A program made the translations under genes and the position numbers. The notes under the pieces are model-generated. The model was not told where the DNA came from. It made no database searches and saw only the letters and a program-made list of their open reading frames with translations. 7,965 nt of DNA from a virus (lineage: Duplodnaviria; Heunggongvirae; Uroviricota; Caudoviricetes), in the IMG/VR virus record IMGVR_UViG_2711768023_000001, one strand, 5' to 3'. Shown here in pieces: positions 1 to 7,965 of the stretch. Within the stretch, counting starts at the first letter, position 1. Each line of letters begins with the position of its first letter.

Positions 1-86
1 CTCCAATGACTAGTCTAAAAACTAGTATTAAGACTATCACTTATTTAAGTGATACTGGTTGTCTGGAGATTCAGGGGGCCAGTCTA
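1..86 (-). mobile_element. IS2 left end (IRL and adjacent sequence), partial; the element continues beyond the left edge of the window
   Basis: Reverse complement of 1..86 matches, from memory, the first ~86 nt of IS2 (TAGACTGGCCCCCTGAATCTCCAGACAACCA.TATCACTTAAATAAGTGATAGTCTTAATACTAGTTTTTAGACTAGTCATTGGAG), with the terminal TAGACTGGCC at 77..86. All three forward frames contain stops. Recalled sequence, not searched. Confidence 0.8.
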
Positions 87-109
87 GTAAGGCTGCGAGA
101 GGTGAATAA
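87..109 (+). pseudogene. 3' remnant of a class-II holin (pinholin S21-like) gene truncated by the IS2 insertion
   Basis: Frame 2 reads ...K-A-A-R-G-E-stop (aag gct gcg aga ggt gaa TAA, 89..109), matching the recalled C-terminus of phage 21 pinholin (...RRKAARGE). The TAA overlaps the endolysin ATG (TAATG), as in lambdoid S-R junctions. Upstream of position 87 the sequence is IS2, not holin. Confidence 0.5.
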
Positions 110-482
110 TGTCGCCATCATTACGCAAGGCTGTTGCAGTTGCTATTGGTGGCGGGGCTGTTGCTATAGCATCTGTGTTAATCACTGGCCCAGGTGGTAA
201 CGATGGTCTGGAAGGTGTCAGCTACATACTATACAAAGATATCATTGGTGTATGGACTGTATGTCACGGACACACCGGAAAAGACATCATGCCTGGTAAA
301 ACGTATACCGAAGCAGAATGCAAAGCTCTCCTGAATAAAGACCTTGCCACTGTCGCCAGACAAATTAACCCGTACATCAAAGTCGATATACCGGAAACAA
401 CGCGCGGCGCTCTTTACTCGTTCGTTTACAACGTGGGCGCTGGCAATTTCAGAACATCGACGCTTCTTCGCAAAATAAACCA
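109..482 (+). CDS. R: SAR endolysin (phage 21 R-like lysozyme, T4-lysozyme/GH24 fold), 3' end hidden in the N gap
   Basis: ATG 109 with GAGAGG Shine-Dalgarno ~7 nt upstream. N-terminal Gly/Ala-rich weakly hydrophobic segment ([21 protein letters not shown]) typical of a signal-anchor-release domain, followed by the Glu/Asp/Thr catalytic context (GLEG..YKD..VWT). Near-identical over 125 residues to recalled phage 21 R / E. coli prophage lysozymes. The ORF runs into the N run at 483. Confidence 0.9.
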
Positions 483-933
483 NNNNNNNNNNNNNNNNNN
501 NNNNNNNNNNNNNNNNNNNNNNNNNNNNNNNNNNNNNNNNNNNNNNNNNNNNNNNNNNNNNNNNNNNNNNNNNNNNNNNNNNNNNNNNNNNNNNNNNNNN
601 NNNNNNNNNNNNNNNNNNNNNNNNNNNNNNNNNNNNNNNNNNNNNNNNNNNNNNNNNNNNNNNNNNNNNNNNNNNNNNNNNNNNNNNNNNNNNNNNNNNN
701 NNNNNNNNNNNNNNNNNNNNNNNNNNNNNNNNNNNNNNNNNNNNNNNNNNNNNNNNNNNNNNNNNNNNNNNNNNNNNNNNNNNNNNNNNNNNNNNNNNNN
801 NNNNNNNNNNNNNNNNNNNNNNNNNNNNNNNNNNNNNNNNNNNNNNNNNNNNNNNNNNNNNNNNNNNNNNNNNNNNNNNNNNNNNNNNNNNNNNNNNNNN
901 NNNNNNNNNNNNNNNNNNNNNNNNNNNNNNNNN
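483..933. other. Run of 451 N (assembly gap or masked sequence)
   Basis: Uninterrupted n characters. The X-containing ORFs in the track across this interval are artifacts. Confidence 1.
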
Positions 934-1116
934 AAATGCCCTGTGCCATCCTCAGCCGAAACCTCCAGCGCCTCCGGCATGGGCAATGATGCCACCGTCG
1001 AACTCTCTCCAGTTGCTGGACGAAACGTTCTCGGTATCCGGGACGGAATCATCAGCGACCAGACAGCATTGAGAATGCTTCAGGAGTACATCAGGATCCA
1101 ATGCCTTGGGGGGTAG
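934..1116 (+). CDS. Rz: i-spanin (Rz-like), C-terminal part only; 5' end in the gap
   Basis: Open frame emerging from the gap and ending at TAG 1114..1116. The C-terminus (...LQEYIRIQCLGG) has a Cys near the end, like lambda Rz (...YINEQCR). Sits immediately downstream of the endolysin and contains a nested +1-frame proline-rich ORF. Confidence 0.6.
   Translation, partial: KCPVPSSAETSSASGMGNDATVELSPVAGRNVLGIRDGIISDQTALRMLQEYIRIQCLGG
935..1072 (+). CDS. Rz1: o-spanin (Rz1-like lipoprotein), nested in the +1 frame of Rz; 5' end (signal peptide) in the gap
   Basis: The +1 frame reads ..ALC-HPQPKPPAPPAWAMMPPSNSLQLLDETFSVSGTESSATRQH, stop TGA 1070..1072. Pro-rich with a PPAPPAW motif like lambda Rz1 (PPPPPAW). 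The Cys at 944..946 is a plausible lipobox Cys. Confidence 0.6.
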   Translation, partial: NALCHPQPKPPAPPAWAMMPPSNSLQLLDETFSVSGTESSATRQH

Positions 1117-1204
1117 CGGTAATTTTACTCATTATCCTTCAAATCAGATTCTGTTGTCAGAGGAATGGGGGAAGCTGGATTCGCAAGAGCTTTTTATGGG
1201 CAGT

Positions 1205-1714
1205 TTAGCTAAAAAAAGGCAACACGAAGCTAAAACTACCAACATAAAGTGCTGACCAGCTAGCAGCTGAAATCAGACTCACTGTATACACTTTCACTGG
1301 ATGAAGTTGCAACATTCCTGCCACCAAAGGAGCAATATAACGCAGCACGGCGATAAAGCGCGAAGTGAAAAGTATTGACACAGAGTTATTTTGCAACTGA
1401 AGGCGAACCCGTTCTATTGTATTGGAACGGCTTGATATTATACATGCAAGTTGAGGGATATGCCCAATTATTATACCAAGATGGTAATTAACGATAGTAC
1501 CGCACCATGCGCCACTCATGACCGTGATTCCAGCTTCCCATGGTGAAAGAGTCGTCTTGCTGACTGTAATTACAGTGGCCATCATAATTGATGCTGGTGG
1601 CAATATCGCCGAAATGAGTAAAGTGGATTTTGTGAACGCTATTATAAAAAGAAGCCCCCATAGGCGATATGGATGAAGTACAAAATAGTTCATCAAAGCA
1701 TTTATCCACTCCAT
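1205..1714 (-). CDS. DedA/YqaA-family-like polytopic inner-membrane protein (moron, function unknown)
   Basis: 510-nt ORF on the complement strand. ATG is the complement of 1712..1714, preceded by an AGGAA Shine-Dalgarno; the track's first codon is a TTG at 1715..1717. Stop TAA is the complement of 1205..1207. The protein is mostly hydrophobic with several predicted transmembrane helices and resembles recalled E. coli YqaA (P..S..PW...T.G...G..N..LG ... LRY). The region is visibly AT-rich relative to flanking phage genes. Confidence 0.7.
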   Translation of the reverse strand: MEWINALMNYFVLHPYRLWGLLFIIAFTKSTLLISAILPPASIMMATVITVSKTTLSPWEAGITVMSGAWCGTIVNYHLGIIIGHIPQLACIISSRSNTIERVRLQLQNNSVSILFTSRFIAVLRYIAPLVAGMLQLHPVKVYTVSLISAASWSALYVGSFSFVLPFFS

Positions 1715-1767
1715 CAATGTCTTTCCTTCTGTGAATTTTTCTTTGCTATTTAACCGTGATACGACTT

Positions 1768-1797
1768 AATTTAGGCTTAAACACCTTACATTTACAA
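1768..1797 (-). promoter_or_regulatory. Putative sigma70-type promoter for the moron gene
   Basis: On the complement strand: TTGTAA (complement of 1792..1797), 18-nt spacer, TAAATT (complement of 1768..1773), about 55 nt upstream of the moron ATG. Weak match by eye, no experimental support. Confidence 0.2.
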
Positions 1798-1911
1798 GGT
1801 ACTCCTGTGGGGGGCCCTGCCACGGAGCGTCGCAGGAGTGAGTGATGAGGAAGAATTAAAGCAACCTATTGTGACAGGCAGCGATAACAGTAAATCACAG
1901 GAAGCATAATC

Positions 1912-2676
1912 ATGGCAAAACCGGACTGGGAGGCCATCGAATCGGCATACCGGGCCGGAGTCCTTAGCCTCCGTGATATAGGCGAGAAATACGGCGTTAC
2001 AGAAGGGGCTATCAGGAAGAGGGCCAAAAAGCTTGGTTGGGCACGCAGTGGCGGTACGCAGGTTTGCAAAAATGGTACGCAAAAAAGGAAAGTGCGTACC
2101 AGCAGAAAGCCTGCCATTACTGGCCTTACACAAAAAAGTACGCAACTAAAAACAGAATCTACACCGGATACGAAACCGATACGCGGAATGCGTACCGATC
2201 CCCCGACTAACCCATTCCAACCCGGTAACCAGCAGGCATTAAAACACGGTGGTTATGCCCGTCGCCTTCTGCTCAAAGATGAGGTGATAGAGGACGCTAA
2301 AGCGTTGACGCTCGAGGACGAATTATTTCGCCTTCGTGCTAACAACCTTGTCGCTGCAGAGAATATTGGTCGGTGGTTGGTGTCGCTGGAAGATGCTAAT
2401 GGGGACCAGGAAAGGAAGATGCTGATTGAAAATATCAGCGCCGCCGAGAAAGCAATGATGCGCAATACAGTTCGTATTGAGTCCATCGTTGGCACGCTTG
2501 CGACGGTAGGAAAAATATTTGCTGATACAGCCTACCGCAAGGCCGCCACTGATAAGGTGTCTCTGGAGGCTGATCGTCTTCGCCGTGATGCAGGTATTGA
2601 TGATGGCAATGGAGAGCGTGACCTCAATGACTTCTACTCTGACATCCAAACCGACGCTGAATCCGGCTTTACGTAG
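1912..2676 (+). CDS. Terminase small subunit (HTH-containing)
   Basis: ATG 1912 with AGGAAG Shine-Dalgarno 8 nt upstream. N-terminal helix-turn-helix-like segment (LSLRDIGEKYGVTEGAIRKRAKKLGW), basic central region, acidic C-terminus. Lies immediately upstream of, and overlaps, the large terminase gene. Stop TAG 2674..2676. Confidence 0.8.
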   Translation: MAKPDWEAIESAYRAGVLSLRDIGEKYGVTEGAIRKRAKKLGWARSGGTQVCKNGTQKRKVRTSRKPAITGLTQKSTQLKTESTPDTKPIRGMRTDPPTNPFQPGNQQALKHGGYARRLLLKDEVIEDAKALTLEDELFRLRANNLVAAENIGRWLVSLEDANGDQERKMLIENISAAEKAMMRNTVRIESIVGTLATVGKIFADTAYRKAATDKVSLEADRLRRDAGIDDGNGERDLNDFYSDIQTDAESGFT

Positions 2677-4030
2677 TTTCTGGACTATGCGGGCACGTAA
2701 CAAAGTGCTTTATGGTGGTCGGTCATCGTCAAAATCATGGGATGCCGCTGGCATTGCCATATTTCTGTCGAATAAATACACCCTGCGTTTTTGTTGTGCC
2801 CGTCAGATCCAGAATAAAATCGAAGAGTCGGTGTATACCCTGCTCAAAATTCAGATAGACAGGTTTGGTCTGCGGCACCGTTTCCGTATTCTGAACAACA
2901 AAATCATTAACCGGGTTACTGGCTCGGAATTTGTTTTTTATGGATTATGGCGCAACATCGAAGAAATTAAGTCACTGGAGGGGATCGATGTGTTGTGGCT
3001 GGAAGAAGCCCACGCACTGACGGAATACCAGTGGAAAATTCTGGAGCCAACGATCCGTAAAGAGGGTTCGGAATGCTGGTTCATATTCAACCCCGGACTT
3101 GTTACTGATTTCGTCTGGCGCAACTTCGTTGTTGATCCGCCCGAAGGCACTCTCATCCGCAAAATTAACTATGACGAAAATCCGTTTCTGTCTGACACCA
3201 TGCTTAAGGTTATCGACGCGGCGCGACGCCGTGATCCGGATGGTTTTAAACATGTGTATGAGGGCGTTCCGGAGTCTGATGATGATGCGGCAATCATCAA
3301 ACTGTCTTGGATAGAAGCCGCAGTGGATGCGCACAAAACGTTAAATTTCGAACCCAGTGGAAGAAAGCGTATTGGCTTTGACGTGGCTGACAGTGGTACA
3401 GATAAGTGCGCTAACGTTTACCGTCACGGATCCGTTGTTTTCTGGGCCGACGAATGGAAGGCCAAAGAAGATGAATTACTGAAGAGCTGCCAGCGTACTT
3501 ATCAGGCGGCGCTGGAGCGTGAAGCAGATATTGTTTACGACTCTATCGGTGTTGGTGCGTCTGCCGGTGCTAAATTCTCTGAAATTAACGCTGACCGGAA
3601 GAGCGAGAACGCATACGCGCGACGTGTGAATTACCAGAGGTTTAACGCCGGTGCTGGTGTGCATGAGCCAGATGACGAGTACAACGGCATCCCCAACAAA
3701 GACTTTTTCGCAAATCTTAAGGCTCAGGCATGGTGGCTGGTGGCTGACCGTTTCAGAAATACGTTTAACGCCATTAACAACGGAGAACAGTATCCTGTGG
3801 ATGAGCTGATCAGCATAGATTCTCGTTGTCCGTTGCTTGAAAAGCTGAAACTGGAACTGACAACACCTCATCGTGATTTCGACCGTAACGGACGTGTGAT
3901 GGTCGAAAGTAAAAAAGACCTCGCAAAACGCGAGATACCGTCACCAAACGTTGCTGATGCATTCATTATGGCCTTCGCGCCAATCGATACATCGCTGGAT
4001 ATCTGGGAACAGCTGGGGAGACAGGCCTGA
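2627..4030 (+). CDS. Terminase large subunit (PBSX/Terminase_6-like ATPase-nuclease)
   Basis: The ORF is open from 2519. The most plausible start is ATG 2627 (MTSTLTSKPTLNPALRSFW...) with GGAG 12 nt upstream, overlapping the TerS 3' end; alternative ATGs are at 2600, 2603 and 2609. P-loop YGGRSSSKSW, Walker-B-like DVLWLEEAH, C-terminal nuclease-domain acidic motifs (IGFDVADSG.., ..VADAFIMAFA). Stop TGA 4028..4030. Confidence 0.9.
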   Translation: MTSTLTSKPTLNPALRSFWTMRARNKVLYGGRSSSKSWDAAGIAIFLSNKYTLRFCCARQIQNKIEESVYTLLKIQIDRFGLRHRFRILNNKIINRVTGSEFVFYGLWRNIEEIKSLEGIDVLWLEEAHALTEYQWKILEPTIRKEGSECWFIFNPGLVTDFVWRNFVVDPPEGTLIRKINYDENPFLSDTMLKVIDAARRRDPDGFKHVYEGVPESDDDAAIIKLSWIEAAVDAHKTLNFEPSGRKRIGFDVADSGTDKCANVYRHGSVVFWADEWKAKEDELLKSCQRTYQAALEREADIVYDSIGVGASAGAKFSEINADRKSENAYARRVNYQRFNAGAGVHEPDDEYNGIPNKDFFANLKAQAWWLVADRFRNTFNAINNGEQYPVDELISIDSRCPLLEKLKLELTTPHRDFDRNGRVMVESKKDLAKREIPSPNVADAFIMAFAPIDTSLDIWEQLGRQA

Positions 4031-5496
4031 TGGCACGAAACAAACAAGCCCTGCGGCGAACTGTGCAGGCCACAGCTGATGGTTATGAGAATTTTATTGC
4101 CCGCGTAGGGATGCAGACACCTAACCAGCACTCAGCATCCACCTACCGGGCTAATTTCACCAGTCGTAACCGCATGCTGGTGGAATGGTCCTATCGTTCA
4201 TCCTAGATCATCGGCGAAGCAGTCGATGCTATCCCGGATGATATGACCCGCAAAGGCATTCGCATCACTTCGGAAATTGATGCAAAAGATCGTGGCATTC
4301 TCGAATCACAACTGGATGAGTTGCAAATCTGGGATGCGCTGAATGACGTGCTGAAATGGTCGCGCCTCTACGGCGGCGCGGTGGGTTTCATCATGATTGA
4401 GGGGTAGGCACCAATGACCCCGCTGCGACCCGAAACCATCGGTAAGGGCAAGTTTAAGGGGATTCTCCCGCTCGACCGCTGGATGGTCGACCCGGCACTG
4501 ACCCGCCGCATTAAAGATATGGGGCCGGACCTGGGTAAACCTGAGTTTTACGATGTGGTGACCACAGCAACGGGAATTCCTGCCTGGCGCATTCATCACA
4601 GTCGCCTGATTCGCTTTGATGGCGTCACGTTGCCATTTCAGCAGAAGATGACCGAGAACGAATGGGGAATGTCGGTTGTAGAGCGTATCTGGGATCGTCT
4701 TACCGCGTTCGACAGCGCTACTGTCGGCGCGGCGCAGCTGGTCTACAAGGCGCATTTGCGTACCTACAGCGTGGAGAAGCTACGCGAGCTTATCGCACTT
4801 GGTGGTCCTGCGTATGAAGCGTTGCTGAAGAATATCGACCTGATTCGACAGTTCCAGAGTAATGAAGGCATGACGCTCATGGACTCGCGGGATAAGTTTG
4901 AAACCCATCAGTACAGCTTCAGTGGTCTGGATGACATCCTTTCGCAGTTTGTAGAACAGATTAGTGGCGCTGTTGGTATCCCACTGGTGCGGTTGTTCGG
5001 ACAGTCCCCGAAAGGATTTTCTACCGGTGATGCAGACCTTGCCAACTATTACGATCGCATCAGTTCGTTGCAGGAGAGGCGTTTACGTCTTCCGGTGCGG
5101 CGGATACTGGACATCATGCATCGTTCGGAACTTGGCAAGCCGCTGCCGGACGATTTCACGTTTGAGTTTAACCCGCTCTGGCAAATGTCTGATGTCGATC
5201 GCTCAACGGTGGCGTTAAACACCACCAACGCAATCAGTACGGCGCTGGGTGATGGTCTGATGACACTGAAAGCCGCTATGACTGATTTGCGAGAAAATTC
5301 TGACGTAACCGGCATCGGGGCATCCATTACCGACGAGGACATCGAGAATGCCGAAGATGAAGCGCCGCCCGGCATCGGCGAACCTGATGACGAACCGCAG
5401 GAGCCGTCAGGCGGAAATCCGGTATCGAACCAGCCTACGCAGGATAGCGAGGGCGGTCGGAGACATCGTAAATGGTCGCTACGATGGTTCAAATGA
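4030..5496 (+). pseudogene. Portal protein gene interrupted by two in-frame amber (TAG) codons
   Basis: ATG 4030 overlaps the TerL stop (TGATG) with GGGGAG 9 nt upstream. A single frame runs 4030..5496 (486 sense codons) except for TAG at 4204..4206 and 4405..4407. The peptides on both sides read as one continuous portal N-terminal region (..YRANFTSRNRMLVEWSYRSS*IIGEAVDAIPDDMTRKG.. and ..RLYGGAVGFIMIEG*APMTPLRPETIGKG..). The longest uninterrupted part is 4414..5496 (360 aa). Acidic C-terminal tail; stop TGA 5494..5496. Confidence 0.8.
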
Positions 5497-6130
5497 CAGT
5501 ATCACGGAAATTATTGCGGCGCTGGAGCGTTACAGTGAAATCATCACCCCCTGGGCGACAAAGGTCGCGGAAAACTTTACTGCGGACCTAACCCGGCAGA
5601 ACGAGAAAGTTTGGCGGCAACACAGCAAGAACATCAGTCGCGAGCTCCGCAATCTTGTGGAAAGCGCTCCTGTGGGCCAGGTGATGCAATCCATCATCGC
5701 CGAACAGGTCAAGTACATCAAATCTCTGCCTCTCGAGGCCGCAGACAGGGTGTACGACATCCAGAACAAAGCGATAGAGGCTGTTGTCACCGGTGGTCGG
5801 GCGGAGCAGTTTGCTAAAGAGATTGCATCTACCGGCGATGTTGCTAAGTCTAGGGCCGATCTGATTGCCCGAACGGAACTGGGAAGAGCAACGGGCGCGC
5901 TGGATATGGCCCGAGCGATAGCTATTGGCTCGGATGGTTATATTTGGCGTACAGCCGATGATGGCGATGTCCGAGATTCCCACGATCACATGAAAGGTAA
6001 ATTCGTCCGCTGGGATTCACCTCCAACTTTGGACGGCATGACCGGCCACGCGGGCGAGCTGCCAAACTGCCGCTGCTATAAAGAGATCGTGTTTGTTCGC
6101 GTTCCATTCGCAATGAAAAGGGCAGCATAA
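5348..6130 (+). CDS. Head morphogenesis protein (phage Mu F-like / SPP1 gp7 family minor head protein)
   Basis: Carries the hallmark C-terminal motif of the Mu-F family (YIWRTADDGDVRDSHDHMKGK....GHAGELPNCRCY). ATG 5348 has a GAGGA Shine-Dalgarno 9 nt upstream; alternative in-frame ATGs at 5357 and 5387. Overlaps the portal 3' end by 149 nt. Stop TAA 6128..6130. Confidence 0.8.
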   Translation: MPKMKRRPASANLMTNRRSRQAEIRYRTSLRRIARAVGDIVNGRYDGSNDSITEIIAALERYSEIITPWATKVAENFTADLTRQNEKVWRQHSKNISRELRNLVESAPVGQVMQSIIAEQVKYIKSLPLEAADRVYDIQNKAIEAVVTGGRAEQFAKEIASTGDVAKSRADLIARTELGRATGALDMARAIAIGSDGYIWRTADDGDVRDSHDHMKGKFVRWDSPPTLDGMTGHAGELPNCRCYKEIVFVRVPFAMKRAA

Positions 6131-6133
6131 CCC

Positions 6134-7354
6134 ATGAAATACTTTTTTGAGACCAGGCTCGGGGAAACCCGATACCGCCTGGCTGACGGCTCGTTGCTGT
6201 GCAAAGACGTGCCGATAGGACGAACAGGTAAGCAGCTCTATGGTGCTGATGACCTGCCAAAACTGAAACCCGATAAGTTCGGTGAAATAGTCGTCACGCG
6301 TTCTCCTGAGCAGGTATTCCATCCGGCCACGCTTGCCTCATTCGAAGGGATGAGCATCACGATCCTGCATCCTGAAGATGAAAACGGGAATGTGCGGCTG
6401 GTAAATCCCGAGAACTGGAAAGAGCTTGCTGTCGGGCACCTCCAGAATGTCCGGCGCGGGACGGGTGAGCAGTCTGATTTGATGCTGGCTGACCTTATCG
6501 TCAAAGACGAAAGCGCCATTCAGCTTATCGAAGATGGCCTGCGCGAAGTGTCGTGCGGCTATGACGCGGAGTACGAGCAGACCGAGCCAGGTAAAGCCGA
6601 GCAGGTCGATATTACCGGAAACCATGTGGCTCTTGTCCCTAAAGGCAGAGCCGGAAATCGTTGTGCAATTGGAGACAGAGACACAATGGCAAATCAAAAG
6701 AAAAACTGGTGGAACCGCATGCGTGCGGCCATCAAGACAGGAGATGCCGACACCATGAACGAACTGGTGGAGTCGGCTCCCGCATCGGTTACAGGAGATG
6801 AGGGGGATTTGCCGCAGGGCGTTAATCTCAACATCAACCTGTCCCCGCAGCAACCACTACCGGACAAAGCACCAGAGATGGGCGGAGATCCAACCGGCGA
6901 CAGTGATGATGACCTCAAAACATTACTGAAAGCCCTGCTGGCTAAGCTGGAAAGAAATGCCACGGGCGATAACGATAATAAGCCTGACGATAATCCGACC
7001 GGTGACGGCGAGGACGATGAAGAGGAAACCACGATTACTGGTGACTCAGCCTGGCGTGCCGAAGTTATCGTTCCGGGTATCGATCTGAGCCGTAAGATGA
7101 AACCGACCGCGTTCAAACGCGAGGTTCTGGCTTCTGCTGACAAAACGCTGGTTCGCCAGATAGTCGGTGATGCGGATATCCGCAAATTACCGAAACAATC
7201 GGTCGACATGGCGTTTAATGCCGTGTCTGAGGTTGCCAAAGGGCGAAACACCCGCGCCACCACCGGCGATGCACAGCGCCTAAACATGGGCATGACCAGT
7301 ATCGCTTCCCTGAACAAACAAAACGCTGAATTCTGGGCAAACCGTAAAGGGTAA
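6134..7354 (+). CDS. Phage head-assembly protein, DUF2213-like N-terminal domain with an acidic TGD-repeat scaffold-like region
   Basis: ATG 6134 sits 3 nt after the upstream stop, with a purine-rich AAAAGGG 11 nt upstream. The N-terminal ~180 aa (MKYFFETRLGETRYRLADGS..HPEDENG..) resembles recalled DUF2213 phage proteins. The middle is acidic low-complexity with repeated TGD motifs; the C-terminus is more basic and helical. Position between the Mu-F gene and downstream structural genes fits a scaffold/protease role. Stop TAA 7352..7354. Confidence 0.7.
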   Translation: MKYFFETRLGETRYRLADGSLLCKDVPIGRTGKQLYGADDLPKLKPDKFGEIVVTRSPEQVFHPATLASFEGMSITILHPEDENGNVRLVNPENWKELAVGHLQNVRRGTGEQSDLMLADLIVKDESAIQLIEDGLREVSCGYDAEYEQTEPGKAEQVDITGNHVALVPKGRAGNRCAIGDRDTMANQKKNWWNRMRAAIKTGDADTMNELVESAPASVTGDEGDLPQGVNLNINLSPQQPLPDKAPEMGGDPTGDSDDDLKTLLKALLAKLERNATGDNDNKPDDNPTGDGEDDEEETTITGDSAWRAEVIVPGIDLSRKMKPTAFKREVLASADKTLVRQIVGDADIRKLPKQSVDMAFNAVSEVAKGRNTRATTGDAQRLNMGMTSIASLNKQNAEFWANRKG

Positions 7355-7357
7355 AAA

Positions 7358-7864
7358 ATGAATAATGTATTTCTGTACCGGATGCCTGTTGGCATTGCCG
7401 GGGCTGTCTCTCGCCCGCAGGACTTAACCGTCGAACCGGTGGTCCTTAAATCCGATAACGCCTTCGCTGCCTATGGCCTGGCTGGTAAATACGATGATGA
7501 CGGTTTTTTCGTGCCGCTGGCAGATGGTGATACCGCAGACAAGGTGAAGGGGATCTACGTGCGCCCTTATCCGACCACGTCGCAGCCGGACATGGTTCGC
7601 CAGGTGGGAACAGGCAAGAACTTCCCGGGCGACGCCATGAAGCGTGGCTACGTGACCGTTAATCTCGGTTCTGATTTTGATGCCAGCACTATCAAAAAAG
7701 GCGATCCGGTATACGTTGTCGTCTCCACTGATGAATCCATCAAAGTGCCGCTGGGTGGATTCATGTCCACGTCAGTCAGTGGCAAAAACGTGGTGCTGAC
7801 CAACGCTGAATTCACAGGTGCCGGTGATGCTGACGGCAATGCAGAAATTTCCTGGAAGATTTAA
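7358..7864 (+). CDS. Hypothetical phage structural protein (possibly a head cement/decoration-type protein)
   Basis: ATG 7358 with AAAGGG Shine-Dalgarno 7-9 nt upstream, tightly packed 3 nt after the preceding gene. 168 aa, Gly/Asp-rich. No motif I can assign confidently; the role is inferred only from position in the head module. Confidence 0.6.
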   Translation: MNNVFLYRMPVGIAGAVSRPQDLTVEPVVLKSDNAFAAYGLAGKYDDDGFFVPLADGDTADKVKGIYVRPYPTTSQPDMVRQVGTGKNFPGDAMKRGYVTVNLGSDFDASTIKKGDPVYVVVSTDESIKVPLGGFMSTSVSGKNVVLTNAEFTGAGDADGNAEISWKI

Positions 7865-7879
7865 GGAACAGACGAATGA

Positions 7880-7965
7880 GGTGATGCTGCCAACTTACTG
7901 ATTTAGTGTATGATGGTGTTTTTGAGGTGCTCCAGTGGCTTCTGTTTCTATCAGCTGTCCCTCCT
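7880..7965 (+). mobile_element. IS1 left end (IRL plus start of insA), partial; the element continues beyond the right edge of the window
   Basis: 7880..7965 matches, from memory, the first ~86 nt of IS1 (GGTGATGCTGCCAACTTACTGATTTAGTGTATGATGGTGTTTTTGAGGTGCTCCAGTGGCTTCTGTTTCTATCAGCTGTCCCTCCT). Recalled sequence, not searched. Confidence 0.85.
7935..7965 (+). CDS. insA: IS1 InsA (transposition repressor), 5' fragment only
   Basis: GTG 7935 followed by GCT TCT GTT TCT ATC AGC TGT CCC TCC (ASVSISCPS), the recalled N-terminus of IS1 InsA. Truncated by the window edge. Confidence 0.6.
   Translation, partial: MASVSISCPS

Follow-up and report, generated by a model that had tools for sequence, protein, structure and literature searches.

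The window analysed here, the whole stretch of 7,965 nucleotides (nt) held as IMG/VR virus record IMGVR_UViG_2711768023_000001, is with a probability of about 0.9 a remnant of a SEN34-like Shigella sonnei prophage in ordinary, undirected decay, in which the genes that are still intact reflect the youth of the remnant and not retention for a function. An earlier reading of the sequence alone (the sequence-only reading) had described a holin, a portal and a right-edge gene as broken among clean packaging and head genes, and had left two explanations side by side. The first, a snapshot of decay, is borne out, as the window lineage is set apart from intact sibling prophages by few substitutions and two insertion sequences (IS), and the capsid and tail half is deleted in complete genomes. 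The second, that parts of the module are retained for another purpose, is not. Genes kept under purifying selection would stay intact in relatives, but related copies carry lesions in the genes for the MuF-like head morphogenesis protein (MuF), the Gp24-like capsid cement protein (Gp24) and the terminase large subunit (TerL), which is the very observation that the sequence-only reading had named as pointing to neutral decay throughout.

In the proposed history, a SEN34-like temperate phage would have integrated beside pgl in an ancestor of S. sonnei, and the window would be its surviving middle piece. In its intact copies this prophage has lysis genes of the lambdoid type, a contractile tail and the type III secretion system (T3SS) effector gene ipaHb. 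The remnant has three kinds of lesion: IS2 has inserted close to the 3' end of the holin gene, as a simple insertion that duplicated 5 bp; IS1 interrupts the major capsid gene at codon 2, together with a 19-kb deletion of capsid, neck, tail, tail-fibre and ipaHb genes; and the portal gene has two nonsense mutations, one of which (CCTGG to CCTAG) probably arose by 5-methylcytosine deamination at a Dcm site. The genes for the terminase small subunit (TerS), TerL, MuF, the DUF2213 protein and Gp24 would be perfect only through youth, at about 0.1% and six substitutions from the intact siblings. These five genes cannot build or fill a capsid, given the loss of the capsid and tail genes and a portal truncated at codon 59; they also appear to be under no detectable selection. 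The gene layout, the junctions, the deletion, the numbers of substitutions and the lesions of relatives were read directly from sequences, whereas absence of function, neutrality and the Dcm mechanism are inferred.

Source and chromosomal position of the remnant

Outside a run of N, the window is 100% identical to loci on S. sonnei chromosomes, including HE616528.1 and CP019689.1, which are those of strains 53G (lineage II) and 75/02 (lineage IIIc), respectively (PMC5447701). The region has been catalogued as prophage 75/02pp10 (CP019689.1 3,461,614-3,492,646), with Salmonella phage SEN34 given as its homologue, and has also been found in Ss046, 53G, FDAARGOS_90 and FORC_11 (PMC5447701). Its PHAST label is "intact" (PMC5447701, Table 3), whereas the sequence holds a portal gene with two stops and a holin gene interrupted by IS2, and is devoid of capsid and tail genes; this published prophage-finder label is corrected here to that of a region without capsid and tail genes and with a truncated portal. 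Many complete chromosomes with this segment were located through exact matches to its TerL, portal-fragment and DUF2213 proteins. The junctions and the neighbouring genes (pgl, ybhD and an aconitase-family gene) are constant in about 20 of these chromosomes, S. sonnei lineages II and III included. The remnant holds a fixed chromosomal position with vertical inheritance in its host lineage, and two copies (L009 and L038) were rearranged later.

In most assemblies the segment is found on a contig of 5-10 kb, and both window ends fall exactly 86 nt inside an IS (IS2 on the left, IS1 on the right), which suggests that the window is a whole short-read contig with repeats at its ends. It could be argued from this, and from the length of the N run (451, compared with 408 nt in every sequenced copy), that the breaks themselves are products of assembly or sequencing, namely contig ends in repeats, an N gap and base-call errors. 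Hardly any credence can be given to such an origin, since about 20 complete chromosomes, each assembled independently, have the same IS2 and IS1 junctions, exact to the base, and both portal amber codons, and complete genomes reveal the sequence beyond the IS elements. The lesions stand, and the N run alone is left over.

Loss of genes essential for particle formation

Comparison with an intact relative defines the lesions. In a megablast search of complete E. coli genomes, strain FDAARGOS_944 proved to have a sibling prophage (L001) that is essentially intact and 99.9% identical over window positions 87-7879, and base-by-base comparison places the breaks in similarity at 86/87 and 7879/7880. 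Between these breaks the portal gene is, as had been claimed, broken: it forms a single frame with two in-frame TAG codons, at 4204-4206 (W59*) and 4405-4407 (Q126*), where intact relatives read TGG and CAG, and it carries A308V (at 4952) besides. The portal is one intact gene of 488 amino acids (aa) in L001, L004, L010, L013, L014, L026, L031, L034 and L037. Rescue of the portal by amber suppression was considered and dropped as moot, the capsid and tail genes being deleted.

At the right edge, the gene that had been called broken proves to be the major capsid gene, of which only 4 nt (ATGA, 7876-7879) remain before IS1 begins at 7880. In complete S. sonnei genomes a 768-nt IS1, with InsA/IS1 transposase genes present, is followed by DNA from just upstream of pgl. 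In the intact sibling prophage this pgl-side point is found 19,075 nt further right, and the genes for major capsid, neck, sheath, tube, baseplate and tail fibres, together with ipaHb, belong to the missing stretch. Genes essential for particles are lost or disrupted, through W59* and Q126* in the portal, the cut in the capsid gene and this deletion. Decay is far more extensive than the window shows, and the element, unable to make a capsid or a tail, is presumably without function. In the FDAARGOS_944 prophage the T3SS effector gene ipaHb lies at the right end beside pgl (L025 5761-7587), and this copy was lost in S. sonnei with the IS1-linked deletion. In two copies IS1 is not followed by pgl: its right-hand neighbour is an autotransporter gene in L009, and L038 has sbmA-, ampC- and autotransporter-like genes at this place. 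This indicates a later IS1-mediated rearrangement in a sub-lineage.

At the left edge, the insertion point of IS2 is 23 nt ahead of the holin stop codon, and the element extends leftwards out of the window. The motif GTAAG (87-91) is the right copy of the 5-bp target duplication and is present on both sides of IS2 in 53G, in which residues 1-66 of the 71 holin residues are retained before the frame runs through 28 codons of IS2. The earlier claim of a broken holin holds in that the gene is cut by IS2, but only its last 23 nt (87-109) lie in the window, and the hydrophobic open reading frame (ORF) at 109 is the endolysin, not the holin. An IS3-family transposase gene stands directly left of the segment in the S. 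sonnei loci, and further left more IS (IS3-family and IS110-family) separate the lysis genes from the remaining regulatory region. The intact sibling has four prophage tRNA genes; one is left in 53G and none in L003. In the FDAARGOS_944 prophage these four genes lie upstream of the holin (L001 10818-11128), and S. sonnei has lost most or all of them through IS insertions.

Lesions in related copies

Copies sharing the IS2 and IS1 junctions of the window and both ambers were assigned to the same remnant lineage. Within this lineage, MuF carries W56* in L038, Gp24 carries Q82* in L009, an IS630 lies in the portal gene of L012, and window positions 1-1658 have been lost from L011. Sister lineages with an intact portal are damaged elsewhere. 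E. coli FDAARGOS_943 (L026) has an IS2 in TerL near window position 3078 and W209* in MuF; in S. flexneri SFBU1023 (L013), TerL has an IS2 near 3292 and has lost 7 nt, and Gp24 has lost 17 nt; the 7-nt TerL deletion is found in L031 and the 17-nt Gp24 deletion in L014. TerL has been hit by IS2 at two independent sites (L026 and L013), and some inactivating lesion is present in every sister lineage examined. When the region of portal codon 59 was looked for in a collection with one genome per species, which lacks the source of the window, only S. flexneri SFBU1023 and E. coli ECMA0423 were found, both with TGG and with other lesions. The set of broken genes varies by lineage and therefore fits undirected decay.

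These lesions bear directly on the proposal of selective retention, according to which the terminase pair and the head genes would be kept in working order for use by the host or another element, for example for packaging in trans, in a satellite-like or transduction role, with a related helper phage giving portal, capsid and tail. It is true that the five genes are intact and identical across S. sonnei lineages II and III. Against this, amber stops have arisen in MuF and Gp24 within the remnant lineage itself, and in sister copies whose portal is intact TerL has been interrupted by IS2 at two independent positions and frameshifted by the loss of 7 nt. The genes are unchanged parent prophage genes with no satellite-specific set among them, IS2 and further IS cut the late operon from its upstream region, and no plus-strand promoter-like site stands ahead of TerS in a consensus scan of 934-2700. 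Together with the counts of substitutions given below, these data make selective retention very unlikely.

Substitutions, chance expectation and mutational bias

Compared with the intact siblings L001, L004 and L010, the window lineage has acquired six derived substitutions in 7,342 nt, at the following positions.

230, endolysin, P41L
2370, TerS, synonymous
2908, TerL, synonymous
4205, portal, W59*
4405, portal, Q126*
4952, portal, A308V

Two of these are synonymous, two missense and two nonsense, and five of the six are G:C to A:T changes. Given six random substitutions, the five named genes escape nonsense by chance with P=0.83-0.87, which is a further argument against retention, and the fall of three of the six in the portal has P=0.10. 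Because the remnant is so young, with only these six substitutions, broken and intact genes standing side by side say nothing about selection.

The ratio of nonsynonymous to synonymous substitution rates (dN/dS) relative to functional phages, which had been put forward as a check in the sequence-only reading, was determined with L002 (a 96.7% identical prophage), phage vB_EcoM-689R2 and phage SEN34 as references. The intact genes do score low (0.0-0.2, with TerS at 0.9 from only 8 differences), but the broken portal scores equally low (0.06-0.10), and dN/dS was rejected as a discriminator since the dead portal looks as constrained as the intact genes. For the same reason, the ratio is taken to mirror the history of the phage before decay and to be without power for a recent remnant.

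Some observations weigh against the reading of undirected decay or against the data on which it is built. The five intact genes have 0 nonsynonymous and 2 synonymous lineage-specific changes, compared with 3 changes in the portal and 8 in the lysis genes; this contrast, of 2 against 11, speaks for retention and points weakly towards constraint, but with n=2 it is no evidence by itself, and 3 of the lysis changes, being common to another lineage, may go back to older polymorphism or to recombination. The sample of relatives favours protein-altering variants, as places with identical neighbouring proteins were collapsed, and its nonsynonymous-to-synonymous ratio is unusable. Single-base homopolymer frameshifts in L016, L017, L024, L034 and L037 are possibly sequencing errors and were not counted as firm lesions. 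Finally, two nonsense mutations among six substitutions exceed what random mutation would give (P=0.017-0.03), and there may have been some selection for knock-out of the portal.

This last point leads to the idea of selected disarmament, in which the portal lesions, the capsid-to-tail deletion and the holin insertion would have been favoured because they stop lethal induction, the other genes being neutral passengers. The nonsense excess, with both mutations in one essential gene, and the inactivating lesions throughout the sister lineages are what such selection would produce. However, a second hit in an already dead portal is not selectable, and in Shigella the spread of IS and the formation of pseudogenes affect the whole genome, as outlined in PMC8072062. 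Most of the nonsense excess is moreover covered by mutational hotspots. All four nonsense mutations of the remnant lineage (W59*, Q126*, MuF W56* and Gp24 Q82*) are TAG. The ancestral sequence of 87-7879 has 15 CCWGG (Dcm) sites, at which 8 of the 30 possible 5-methylcytosine deaminations give TAG. Three of the four ambers lie on those eight positions, namely portal W59* at 4205 (CCTGG to CCTAG), MuF W56* at 5553 and Gp24 Q82* at 7601 (CCAGG to CTAGG), each being a C-to-T change at the inner C of CCWGG or a G-to-A change on the other strand; Q126*, at 4405, lies outside any Dcm site. The Dcm methylase is assumed to be active in E. coli and Shigella hosts, and the classic lacI work of Coulondre and Miller is said to have placed amber hotspots at the 5-methylcytosine of CCAGG. 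Deamination of Dcm-methylated cytosine and its Vsr (VSP) repair are established biology (PMC2715241). From the positions of the ambers, Dcm mutation bias would explain most of the excess without selection, and with one portal amber and both later ambers at such hotspots, selected disarmament is unlikely.

The amber at codon 59 also had a later consequence. In one strain (L012 11578-12734, window 4204-4205) a 1,153-nt IS630 with a TA duplication lies exactly in the CTAG made by W59*. CTAG is the preferred target of IS630, as relayed by PMC2170065 in its citation of Tenzen and Ohtsubo 1991. The Dcm-hotspot amber therefore produced a CTAG that was later used by IS630 in L012, a textbook mutational chain from Dcm hotspot to amber codon, to CTAG and to IS630 target.

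Gene layout of the window

Gene identities were assigned by reading of the ORFs and the sequence, plus Pfam and PHROG scans, as follows.

1..86, minus strand: terminal 86 nt of IS2, transposase-proximal end (100% match to the annotated 'IS3-like element IS2 family' end in L026)
87..109, plus strand: class II holin, last 23 nt including the stop codon (107-109), aligned to the intact holin of L001/L004
109..482, plus strand: RrrD-like endolysin, 5' three-quarters, with an N-terminal hydrophobic segment (Pfam Phage_lysozyme E=4e-30; 'lysozyme RrrD' in L001)
483..933, no strand: run of 451 N, covering the endolysin 3' end and the 5' part of Rz/Rz1
934..1116, plus strand: Rz spanin, C-terminal part (Pfam Phage_lysis E=2.5e-7)
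935-1072, plus strand: Rz1, 3' part, embedded in Rz in the +1 frame (Rz1-type proline-rich tail read from the sequence)
1205..1717, minus strand: DedA-family (VTT domain) membrane protein (Pfam VTT_dom E=9e-14; 'DedA family protein' in L001 and L026)
1912..2676, plus strand: TerS, intact (phrog_370 'terminase small subunit' E=7.5e-95)
2627..4030, plus strand: TerL of the PBSX/Terminase_3 type, intact (Pfam Terminase_3 E=4e-38)
4030..5496, plus strand: portal pseudogene, DUF1073/Phage_portal_3 (Pfam; single frame with two amber codons)
5387..6130 (longest ORF from 5348), plus strand: MuF-like head morphogenesis protein, intact (Pfam Phage_Mu_F E=2e-18; phrog_324 E=1e-84)
6134..7354, plus strand: DUF2213 protein of head maturation protease or scaffold type, intact (Pfam DUF2213 E=3e-42; PHROG matches including 'head maturation protease' families)
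7358..7864, plus strand: 168-aa Gp24-like capsid cement/virion structural protein, intact (phrog_563 'virion structural protein' E=8e-57; Pfam Phage_cement; 'structural cement protein Gp24' annotation)
7876..7879, plus strand: major capsid gene (DUF2184/Major_capside), first 4 nt, ATGA (alignment with L001, start of the 313-aa capsid gene)
7880..7965, plus strand: IS1, first 86 nt, running out of the window (100% match to the annotated IS1A start in L026)

The genes for TerS, TerL, MuF, the DUF2213 protein and the 168-aa protein are uninterrupted and closely packed, as had been described, and their names are backed by Pfam and PHROG matches. TerL overlaps TerS by 50 nt, and the intact prophages L004 and L010 encode the identical TerL protein. 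Within TerL a perfect 7-nt tandem repeat, TGGTGGC twice over (3731-3744), is likely to be a slippage hotspot; loss of one unit in L013 and L031 gives the TerL frameshift of these copies. The start of MuF is disputed among gene callers, with products of 247, 260 or 152 aa. The start at 5387 follows the L001 annotation, and the ATG at 5348 has the better Shine-Dalgarno sequence; the out-of-frame overlap with the portal 3' end is 110 nt from the former and 149 nt from the latter, and SEN34 is without such an overlap. The consensus scan of 934-2700 returned 4 promoter-like sites, compared with 2.3 +/- 1.3 in shuffles and so not clearly above expectation, and none on the plus strand between DedA and TerS. 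The antisense DedA-family gene between Rz and TerS is cargo; it is kept in all examined prophage copies and carries R97H in one S. sonnei clade.

In all of the S. sonnei copies that are identical elsewhere, about 20 loci, the equivalent of the N run is 408 nt long, 43 nt shorter than the 451 N, and yields a complete 165-aa lysozyme and a 156-aa Rz. The run may be masked sequence of arbitrary length, a true insertion or a scaffold gap of estimated size, for which the repetition of rrrD/Rz-like cassettes in these genomes is relevant. In these 408 nt (L018 6113-6520) the S. sonnei copies differ from the intact siblings by 7 changes, 6 of them missense (endolysin D127Y and R136C; Rz C18R, A60D, N74D and W91R). 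Changes are about 10 times as frequent here as in the rest of the window, and the endolysin and Rz ORFs remain open. The C18R change puts an arginine inside the N-terminal hydrophobic segment of Rz. Three of the 7 changes are common to FDAARGOS_943, and no recombination donor with a match above 99.5% was found among complete E. coli genomes. Older polymorphism, recombination with paralogous lysis cassettes and neutral decay are possible sources of these changes.

What the remnant means

The locus is already known, having been catalogued among the prophage regions of S. sonnei, and all processes seen in it are textbook ones (insertion of IS2, IS1 and IS630, IS-linked deletion, and nonsense mutation at Dcm hotspots). 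It carries little weight as a discovery, IS-driven prophage erosion being a known hallmark of Shigella genomes. Its use lies more in a caution, that the intact-looking genes of a very young remnant carry no signal of selection, and that dN/dS relative to distant functional phages misses recent relaxation. There is a faint chance that TerS/TerL, MuF, the DUF2213 protein and Gp24 might still be expressed and might either complement a superinfecting phage of the SEN34-like or ipaH type or interfere with it. If expressed, they may act, for example, in trans-packaging or recombinational rescue, the only hint being the same contrast between 2 synonymous changes and 11. The intactness of the five genes in the main S. 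sonnei clades would then be more than an accident of youth.

Comparison with known prophages, phages and satellites

The remnant is homologous and collinear with complete prophages and phages. Its intact siblings (FDAARGOS_944, L004 and L010) share with the window 99.9% identity, gene order and pgl as chromosomal neighbour; unlike the window copy, all three have a full holin, a 488-aa portal, a capsid and a tail, and for the FDAARGOS_944 prophage the tail is seen to be contractile and to have tail fibres, with ipaHb and four tRNA genes present as well. Among complete deposited phage genomes, Salmonella phage SEN34 (Brunovirus) has the same module of portal, MuF, DUF2213, virion structural protein and capsid at 83% identity, and Escherichia phages vB_EcoM-689R2, 611R5, 683R1 and 606R2 have the same head module at 94.5% identity, but the terminase genes of these phages are other in type and length than the PBSX-type TerL of the window.

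Phage satellites, such as phage-inducible chromosomal islands (PICI) and similar elements, also keep a subset of packaging genes while a helper phage supplies the rest. They have integrase, replication and regulatory genes of their own and ends bounded by att sites. The window differs from them in that its genes are those of the parent prophage, unmodified and with nothing specific to satellites, and its boundaries are insertions of IS2 and IS1, not att sites; in complete genomes its flanks consist of further IS and leftovers of the same prophage. A parallel is also offered by the cryptic prophages DLP12, Rac and Qin of E. coli K-12, lambdoid remnants eroded by IS and deletions that still hold an rrrD-type lysozyme, Rz and scattered intact late genes. 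These are older and more diverged than the S. sonnei remnant, which lies only about 0.1% from its living relatives.

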